Of a stretch of DNA of 12,347 nt, positions 1,513-2,145 are shown in pieces. Every line of letters begins with the position of its first letter. Positions within the stretch are counted from its first letter, which is position 1. Source of the DNA: a virus; the UHGV virus genome UHGV-0179105, one strand, 5' to 3'. The translations under genes and the position numbers were made by a program. The notes beneath the pieces were generated by a model. That model had not been told where the DNA came from and made no database searches. It saw nothing but the letters and a program-made list of their open reading frames with translations.

Positions 1513-2145
1513 TTATTTGAGCGTTTCGTTTACGAAAAAGATGTCGTTGTGTTCGTAACATTTATGACATGTCAGGCAGTTGCGGGCACCGCAGTTGATC
1601 TCGACATTATGCTGCTTGCTGTACGCCTTATCGTAGACGGTGAATACCTTATCGATCCAGCTGTAATTGGAGAAATCCTGCGAGACCTGATTGAGGTGGT
1701 CGGAACTGTATACGCAAATCAGATTGTCCGGCTTGCCAAGCTCCTGAATAGCCTTATCCATGAAGGCGGCGTTCTTTGTCCAGAGAGCGATCGTACACCA
1801 CGGATTTGCCCTGGCAATGCGGATATAGTTCTTAGCGTGAGTCACATTGACAAGGTCGCCATGACTTTCAAACCGGGCAATACGGCTGTTCAAAACAGGC
1901 AGCTCGTAAACCTCAAGGTCATGACTGGAAAGAATCTTGGTGTTTTCTGCATAGCGGTTTCGTGCGGCGGGGTAGATGGCCAGACCACGCTTGGCATAGC
2001 AGTGTGCGCATACGCTGGTTTCATCCTTGGCACGCTGTTCACAAATGGGGTTGCAGAGCATACTGGTAGTGATGGTCGGAATGCCGTTCATTTTGCCTTG
2101 CGGGTGAGAGATAAAAATCTGTTCTATGACACGATCGTTTTTCAT
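1513..2145 (-). CDS. Cys-rich hypothetical protein, 210 aa (putative metal-binding)
   Basis: Track ORF 1513..2172; preferred start ATG 2145 (MKNDRVIEQ...) with AAAGGA 8 nt upstream. N-terminal cluster C-x3-C-x10-C-x2-C (CNPICEQRAKDETSVCAHCYA) and C-terminal cluster C-x4-C-x2-C-x2-C (CGARNCLTCHKC). Confidence 0.65.
   Translation of the reverse strand: MKNDRVIEQIFISHPQGKMNGIPTITTSMLCNPICEQRAKDETSVCAHCYAKRGLAIYPAARNRYAENTKILSSHDLEVYELPVLNSRIARFESHGDLVNVTHAKNYIRIARANPWCTIALWTKNAAFMDKAIQELGKPDNLICVYSSDHLNQVSQDFSNYSWIDKVFTVYDKAYSKQHNVEINCGARNCLTCHKCYEHNDIFFVNETLK

Follow-up and report, generated by a model that had tools for sequence, protein, structure and literature searches.

The 12,347-bp viral DNA stretch UHGV-0179105 (hereafter the window), which is the whole of the metagenome contig ENA ERZ1034818 NODE_385, carries on its minus strand a gene (1513..2145) for a protein of 210 amino acids (aa) that is a new member of the catalogued, unstudied virus family GP88 (PF17338). 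Seven cysteines of this protein, three close to the N-terminus and four close to the C-terminus, are conserved throughout nearly the entire family. Together with the predicted fold and a remote profile similarity to DUF5131, they suggest that GP88 is a minimal and very divergent enzyme of the radical S-adenosylmethionine (SAM) type with a second, four-cysteine metal site, nearest to the clade of DUF5131 (Gp37/Gp68) and spore photoproduct lyase (SPL). A rough probability of 0.55 is given to this reading.

Conserved Cysteines and Family Motifs

The window protein contains 10 cysteines in all. A first-pass annotation, made from the letters of the window, had described two clusters, C31-x3-C35-x10-C46-x2-C49 (SVCAHCYAKRG) and C185-x4-C190-x2-C193-x2-C196 (CGARNCLTCHKC), and both are present exactly as described. 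Their conservation was assessed in an alignment of 149 representatives of 50%-identity clusters (A2, to which all counts out of 149 in this section refer), complemented by a 47-sequence alignment (A1). C35, C46, C49 and C185 are found in 149/149 sequences each and C190, C193 and C196 in 147-148 (99%). Conservation consequently holds for seven of the eight named cysteines (147-149/149) and fails for C31 (codon 2053..2055, minus strand), which is a cysteine in 29 sequences (19%), is replaced elsewhere by L, E, D, V or K, and is not a conserved ligand. C116 and C143 are not conserved either. The cysteine motifs are thus not a product of chance, and the conserved set is one of three plus four. Because C31 is dispensable, the N-terminal site is of the three-cysteine, radical SAM type.

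Across the family, the two motifs read C-x10-C-x2-C-(Y/F)-(A/S) and N-C-G-x-(R/K)-x-C-x2-C-x2-C-Y. The N-terminal one, C35-x10-C46-x2-C49-Y50-A51 (CEQRAKDETSVCAHCYA; 1993..2043, minus strand), is the proposed [4Fe-4S] site; position 50 is Y or F in all 149 sequences and position 51 is A or S in 145. The C-terminal one, N184-C185-x4-C190-x2-C193-x2-C196-Y197 (NCGARNCLTCHKCY; 1555..1596, minus strand), is the proposed second metal site, with N184 present in 141 and Y197 in 147-148 of the 149 sequences and the x4 spacing kept in 137 of 144 scored sequences. The earlier suggestion of two metal sites or an iron-sulfur (Fe-S) or zinc enzyme agrees well with this conservation and with the remote relatives described below, which are Fe-S radical SAM enzymes, metal binding as such being inferred.

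Beyond the cysteines, conservation reaches 90% of the sequences or more at about 25 positions, among them K18, N32, N68, P83, R91, E93, G96, D97, N106, W122, K124, P139, N141, S147, D165, F168, V170, N184, E207 and K210; R91, K124, N141 and F168 are found in all. R91, E93, G96, D97, K124, N141, S147 and F168 are located at predicted strand ends. Several of these positions fall into short motifs on the minus strand: G17-K18-M19 ahead of strand 1 (2089..2097; K18 in 147 and M19 in 138 of 149), R91-F-E93-S-H-G96-D97 of strand 2 (1855..1875; consensus FRFESFGD; R91 in 149, E93 in 147, G96 in 145, D97 in 146), W122-T-K124-N125 of strand 3 (1771..1782; consensus WTKNP; K124 in 149, W122 in 140) and the C-terminus E207-T-L-K210 (1516..1527; E207 in 148, K210 in 143), where K210 is the final residue of the protein in 110/149 relatives. 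As judged from both alignments, the window protein carries every family motif: GKM, C-x10-C-x2-C-Y-A, RFESFGD, WTKN, SS, DKVFTVY, NCG-x-R-x-C-x2-C-x2-CY and NE-x-LK. No feature sets it apart from the other members.

Membership and Distribution of the GP88 Family

The window protein scores above the Pfam gathering threshold of PF17338 (E=5.5e-16; 59.6 bits, cutoff 24.4), its residues 35-195 aligning with positions 38-208 of the 230 in the profile, and 143 of the 149 relatives also scored as GP88 in a Pfam scan. This virus family, to which no function is assigned, was the sole profile match, in line with the phage-specific family with cysteine motifs that the first-pass annotation had tentatively mentioned; no family with a different, established metal-free fold was matched. 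A weak PHROG match led to a family of unknown function, and there was no match among the NCBIfam or the PADLOC defence models. Neither the single protein nor the family profile matched any PDB sequence. No paper on PF17338 was found in the literature library that was searched, and the family has no solved structure.

A word-indexed search recovered 368 homologues, none of them informatively named. When 1.84 billion cluster representatives were searched exhaustively with a profile, 2204 of them matched at E<=1e-3 and 863 at E<=1e-30. The sub-branch of the family to which the window protein belongs is frequent in metagenomes (2204 clusters at 50% identity) and rare in sequenced phages (3/50,697 records). 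The sources of the family comprise gut, marine and methanogenic-enrichment samples and include viruses of both bacteria and archaea, with Clostridia, Alphaproteobacteria, methanogens, haloarchaea and Thaumarchaeota as hosts. On IMG/VR viral contigs, 149 matches were confirmed. Among 72,556 plasmids there was no match, which rules out a plasmid origin. Cellular genomes, searched with one genome per species for 185,579 species, contained just 9 GP88 loci, all in gut anaerobes and mostly in metagenome-assembled genomes; one of these is a prophage-like region in which the gene adjoins a P22-type antirepressor. Ten longer members (331-370 aa) carry extensions that match no Pfam domain and share no similarity with one another. 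The median isoelectric point (pI) of the family is about 9.

Predicted Fold

An AlphaFold2 model computed on A1 reached a predicted local distance difference test score (pLDDT) of 94.5 and a predicted template modeling score (pTM) of 0.90. In the model, a short strand 1 is followed by a helical cysteine loop and four strand-helix units, with strands at residues 89-92, 118-123, 142-147 and 166-171, and a last strand (204-208) is located after the C-terminal cysteine region. The predicted fold is a partial beta/alpha barrel in which the three-cysteine motif comes after the first predicted beta strand. Three conserved elements stand at positions that would suit the SAM-binding motifs of the superfamily: E93-x-x-G96-D97 follows strand 2, where a GGE-like motif would be expected, S147-S148 belongs to strand 4, the place of the ribose motif, and F168-T-V-Y to strand 5, the place of GxIxGxxE. 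Without a structural superposition, they cannot be equated with these canonical motifs.

Fold comparison placed SPL (PDB 4fhc) as the nearest structural relative, and EpeE, lysine 2,3-aminomutase, RlmN, SuiB, NifB, LipA, TYW1 and NosL were also found in the ranking; from rank 7 onward, Rossmann-fold methyltransferases with far shorter alignments were interleaved. In a viral structure library, significant matches were obtained to GP88-domain proteins of a Nitrosopumilus spindle-shaped virus, Halogranum tailed virus 1 and marine viruses. Next in the ranking were DUF7227 and a Gp37/Gp68-like protein, and after these came proteins annotated as radical SAM, whose E-values were not significant.

Remote Profile Similarity to DUF5131 and Possible Relationship to the Radical SAM Superfamily

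In the Pfam scan of the 149 relatives, DUF5131 (PF07505) was matched below threshold in 16 (best E 3.3e-4) and, apart from GP88 itself and weak cysteine-rich zinc-finger or zinc-binding models, was the only family matched by more than one member. One relative showed a weak SPL match. The window protein itself does not reach the DUF5131 gathering threshold (28.9 bits). DUF5131 is listed in RadicalSAM.org as Megacluster-5-2 of the radical SAM superfamily, beside the MJ0683-like (5-1) and SPL (5-3) groups (PMC9477430). Its motif is given as CX6CX2C, and CXnCX2C variants with n = 4-11 have been recorded in the superfamily (PMC9477430). The variant C35-x10-C46-x2-C49 is found in 149/149 GP88 sequences, in which the canonical CX3 spacing is absent.

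For a direct profile comparison, DUF5131 genes were fetched from viral contigs by a degenerate DNA pattern for W-N-P-x2-G-C-x6-C-x2-C-Y-A; three of the fetched open reading frames (ORFs) were confirmed as DUF5131 (E=1e-76 to 1e-101), and a 44-sequence alignment (A3) was obtained. With hhalign, GP88 and DUF5131 were aligned over 127-128 columns at a probability of 88.9% (E 2.4e-6) with A1 and 81.3% (E 1.2e-5) with A2, values that fall short of the usual 95% comfort level. N32-P-x-C35 and C46-x2-C49-Y-A of GP88 are aligned in register with N-P-x2-G-C and G-C-x2-C-Y-A of DUF5131, as are S-x-G-D-L of strand 2 with S-M-S-D-L (NSMSDLF) and W-T-K-N-P with L-T-K-R-P.

A group of DUF5131-like viral proteins (g0; loci L227, L228, L229 and 43 other viral loci) carries the canonical CX3CX2C (WNPITGCRHECPYCYA) in place of CX6CX2C. 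GP88 was aligned with this group at 87.7%, with L-T-K-N-P in common, and DUF5131 at 100%. The match of these CX3CX2C proteins to DUF5131 therefore indicates that the first spacer is plastic within the clade (x3, x6, x10). DUF5131 was also aligned with another CX3CX2C group (YRGCTHGCLYCYAP) at 98.3%, and a direct comparison of GP88 with two viral CX3CX2C groups outside DUF5131 gave a probability of about 3%. The fold and profile comparisons, regarded as independent lines, point to the same radical SAM clade, neither being strong alone.

Genomic Context

All genes of the window are located on the minus strand, and most are small and unannotated, the exceptions being a Bro-N/Ant-like antirepressor, a predicted DUF5052 lipoprotein and members of a few PHROG families without an assigned function. 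The same holds for relatives, in which the GP88 locus is always found among small, mostly same-strand, unannotated ORFs. Identical or near-identical GP88 genes are present on IMG/VR viral contigs of 63-233 kb. With megablast, the whole window matched none of 50,697 phage records, which rules out its identity with a sequenced phage, and its source is probably a large uncultured phage.

In relatives, the gene array continues in two ways, toward a cI-like helix-turn-helix repressor on the opposite strand and toward genes for a PRPP-synthetase-like protein, NAMPT, a Macro-domain protein, NAD synthase, RlaP and a CCA-adding enzyme. The latter set looks like a counter-defence module for the reconstitution of nicotinamide adenine dinucleotide (NAD) and the repair of tRNA. 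It was observed in the sister phages L004 (14975-20633), L005 and L007, downstream of the GP88 array and beyond the left end of the window. The GP88 region may accordingly represent an early or accessory zone for host-takeover and counter-defence genes. Among sequenced phages, three carry a homologue: it is gene 2, at the genome end, in Roseobacter phage CRP-5 and the third gene of an operon diverging from the terminase in Pelagibacter phage Greip, and in Methanomicrobiales virus vir526 it belongs to an extended series of small genes located upstream of the recombination genes.

Neighboring genes were clustered for 2215 ORFs from 94 loci and counted over 82 loci in 27 lineages (70% identity). 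No family was the immediate neighbor in more than 4 of the 27 lineages, and pairwise BLAST of the flanking genes of 8 loci revealed no conserved partner. The families recurring within 6 kb (reverse transcriptase, tyrosine recombinases, terminase and a DndB-like protein) look like a shared phage backbone rather than partners. The reverse transcriptase (RVT_1, E=6e-20) occurs within 6 kb of GP88 in 8 of the 27 lineages, at the loci L142 (1579-2856), L010 (2414-3604) and 8 others; in L010 it adjoins a ThiF-like gene. It may belong to a diversity-generating retroelement or to a retroelement of another kind.

Proposed Mechanism and Alternative Explanations

If GP88 is a radical SAM enzyme, C35, C46 and C49, positioned past strand 1 of the partial barrel and followed by Y-A, would hold a [4Fe-4S] cluster whose fourth iron would bind SAM. 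Reduction of the cluster by a host flavodoxin or ferredoxin would lead to cleavage of SAM to a 5'-deoxyadenosyl radical, which would then take a hydrogen from the substrate. C185, C190, C193 and C196 would form the second metal site, in which an auxiliary Fe-S cluster would be bound or zinc would serve a structural role. The enzyme would act alone, without a conserved partner gene, from early or accessory arrays of bacterial and archaeal viruses. Such self-sufficiency, combined with hosts from both domains, would imply a substrate that is common to all hosts. A nucleic acid (DNA or tRNA/rRNA) is favored because the nearest structural relative, SPL, acts on DNA, and a small open barrel and a basic pI would fit such a substrate. 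After nucleic acids, a nucleotide or SAM itself comes into consideration.

Several observations weigh against this reading. Foldseek returned no significant match to the PDB (best E 0.23), and neither Radical_SAM (PF04055) nor any Fe-S cluster-binding family of Pfam was matched by any of the 149 relatives (E<=0.1); the window protein does not match PF04055 at E up to 10. The hhalign probabilities lie below 90% and are limited to the N-terminal two thirds of GP88. GP88 does not keep the aromatic residue that canonically precedes the third cysteine, position 48 being K, H, E or R, and no GGE-type SAM-binding motif could be identified with confidence. The two cysteine groups are defined by sequence and not by their spatial position in the model, and the proposed substrate is drawn from analogy. 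For DUF5131 itself there is no solved structure, and the RadicalSAM.org listing is the only literature that was found on it; the link therefore leads to a subgroup defined by curation.

A tentative alternative is that GP88 is a metalloenzyme without radical chemistry, that is, a barrel with hydrolase, transferase or lyase activity on a nucleotide or nucleic acid which would not cleave SAM, and in which the cysteine groups would bind zinc in a structural role, or an Fe-S cluster that serves only for structure or redox sensing. A small, basic Fe-S or zinc protein without catalytic activity, stabilized by its metals and binding host DNA, RNA or protein early in infection as a regulator or defence inhibitor, would be in keeping with the median pI of about 9, the lack of a partner gene and the position in an early or accessory region where antirepressor and candidate anti-defence genes abound. 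However, about 30 positions are strongly conserved across all predicted strand ends and the barrel is compact, both of which are typical of an enzyme active site, and binders encoded in phage early regions usually evolve fast, whereas the GP88 motifs are kept from phages of Clostridia to archaeal viruses, so that a binding protein appears improbable. Still further down the scale, GP88 might be one of the known small radical SAM enzymes in a divergent form; because profile matches and pathway partners are both lacking, this is disfavored and considered very improbable.

With regard to the function of a radical SAM-type GP88, a more specific proposal describes the family as a minimal, so far unrecognised, virus-restricted radical SAM subgroup with a CX10CX2C cluster motif and a CX4CX2CX2C auxiliary site. 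In viruses of bacteria as well as archaea, it would act alone and early in infection on a universal macromolecule or metabolite of host or virus, for example by DNA or tRNA modification or by SAM consumption, in the service of host takeover or counter-defence. At present, this proposal has to be regarded as doubtful.

Gene Boundaries, Upstream Region, and Other Genes of the Window

The GP88 coding sequence begins with an ATG at 2145 and ends with a TAA at 1513-1515 (minus strand). It is backed by the ORF, its translation, the Pfam match and homologues, and the same coding sequence was called on 16 public contigs. A ribosome-binding site, AAAGGA (2154..2159, minus strand), was read 8 nucleotides (nt) 5' of the ATG, and the next downstream gene begins just 14 nt past the stop codon. 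A plus-strand ORF of 249 aa (1549-2298), overlapping the GP88 gene and the upstream gap, has nothing to support it and should be regarded as a shadow ORF. The GP88 protein had been taken for the second largest of the window, but the genes for proteins of 434, 224 and 215 aa are larger.

The 136-nt intergenic gap had been measured correctly (2146..2281) and placed after the gene; the minus-strand orientation of the gene puts it upstream instead. Crude ORF calls across the 27 lineages showed that the upstream gap is typically the larger one, with medians of about 82 nt upstream and about 23 nt downstream. The gap gave no match in an Rfam search, its predicted RNA fold is not unusual (z=-1.2), and a promoter scan of the minus (coding) strand found no consensus sigma-70 promoter; on these three grounds, a regulatory RNA or promoter of these kinds was ruled out. 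A 13-nt block, TAAAAACTGAATA (2187..2199, minus strand), is located 41 nt upstream of the ATG and is the sole long conserved block shared with the corresponding gap of the lineage L010-L013, whose GP88 protein is 68% identical to that of the window and which carries the block 48 nt upstream, the rest of the gap being different. It occurs once in the window, and a single chance match at up to 2 mismatches is not rare. This block may represent a promoter or operator element.

Among the other minus-strand genes, the one at 2523-3152 codes for a 209-aa DUF5052 protein (E=3.5e-65; PHROG 2316) with a signal peptide and a lipobox-like LSLCSC; this predicted lipoprotein in a phage early gene array could be a candidate for superinfection exclusion. 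The gene at 7243-7917 codes for an acidic 224-aa protein (PHROG 26364, function not assigned), larger than the GP88 protein, with the CxxC pairs CDSCGE, CPICGEE and CKNCGK and weak zinc-finger, zinc-ribbon and Lar-like matches. In addition to the GP88 protein, it is a candidate for metal binding in the window. The largest gene (8981-10285) codes for 434 aa with an N-terminal Bro-N/anti-repressor Ant domain and a long, unannotated C-terminal part.

The sister phages L004 (8013-8978), L005 and L007 encode an additional 321-aa protein that is missing from the window. Its gene lies where the window has the junction 3153-3168, between the DUF5052 gene and a gene for a 96-aa protein (3169-3459). The protein shows the canonical radical SAM motif GCPMNCNFC together with MGEP, and its match to Pfam Radical_SAM (E=1.6e-5) does not reach the cutoff. 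In some relatives, two radical-SAM-like genes are thus found at a distance of about 1 kb from each other.

Significance

GP88 is a sizeable virus-specific family that has apparently been studied by nobody. Should it prove to be a true radical SAM enzyme, it would be among the smallest known and would display an unlisted cluster motif, CX10CX2C, and as a stand-alone early gene it would be a tractable target in the search for new viral chemistry on nucleic acids or metabolites. If the virus-restricted subgroup outlined above exists, both its enzymatic activity and the class of early viral function that it represents would be new. For the window, the result is an annotation of the gene as a catalogued domain without an assigned function, to which a biochemical hypothesis that can be tested is now attached. 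The radical SAM link, the CX10CX2C motif, the four-cysteine site and the stand-alone context together form such a testable hypothesis and not a discovery.

Comparison with Known Systems

The minimal radical SAM enzymes of the QueE and PFL-AE/NrdG types show no sequence-profile relation to GP88, and their conserved motifs differ. Their pathway or glycyl-radical partner genes are absent near GP88. The window protein matched no NCBIfam or Pfam model of such enzymes, and neither queC, queD or folE nor a transglycosylase was present in any examined locus. SPL, a radical SAM DNA repair lyase, is a larger protein (340 aa) with 10% identity to GP88 and, unlike GP88, exhibits the canonical CX3CX2C and no C-terminal four-cysteine cluster. 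Conversely, the window protein shows neither a Pfam SPL match nor the CX3CX2C spacing.

The DUF5131 proteins differ from GP88 in their length of about 250-330 aa, in their W-N-P-x2-G-C-x6-C-x2-C motif (CX6CX2C, or CX3CX2C in one viral group, vs. CX10CX2C in GP88), in the lack of CX4CX2CX2C, and in a C-terminal half with S-x-E-P-L-L and G-G-E-S-G that cannot be aligned. Neither the full W-N-P-x2-G-C-x6-C-x2-C-Y-A pattern nor S-x-E-P or G-G-E-S-G is found in GP88, and the cysteine region common to both is N-P-x-C...C-x2-C-Y-A. Like GP88, however, DUF5131 is phage-associated and uncharacterized, and the two families share the acidic motif of strand 2 (S-x-x-D-L) and T-K-(N/R)-P on strand 3.

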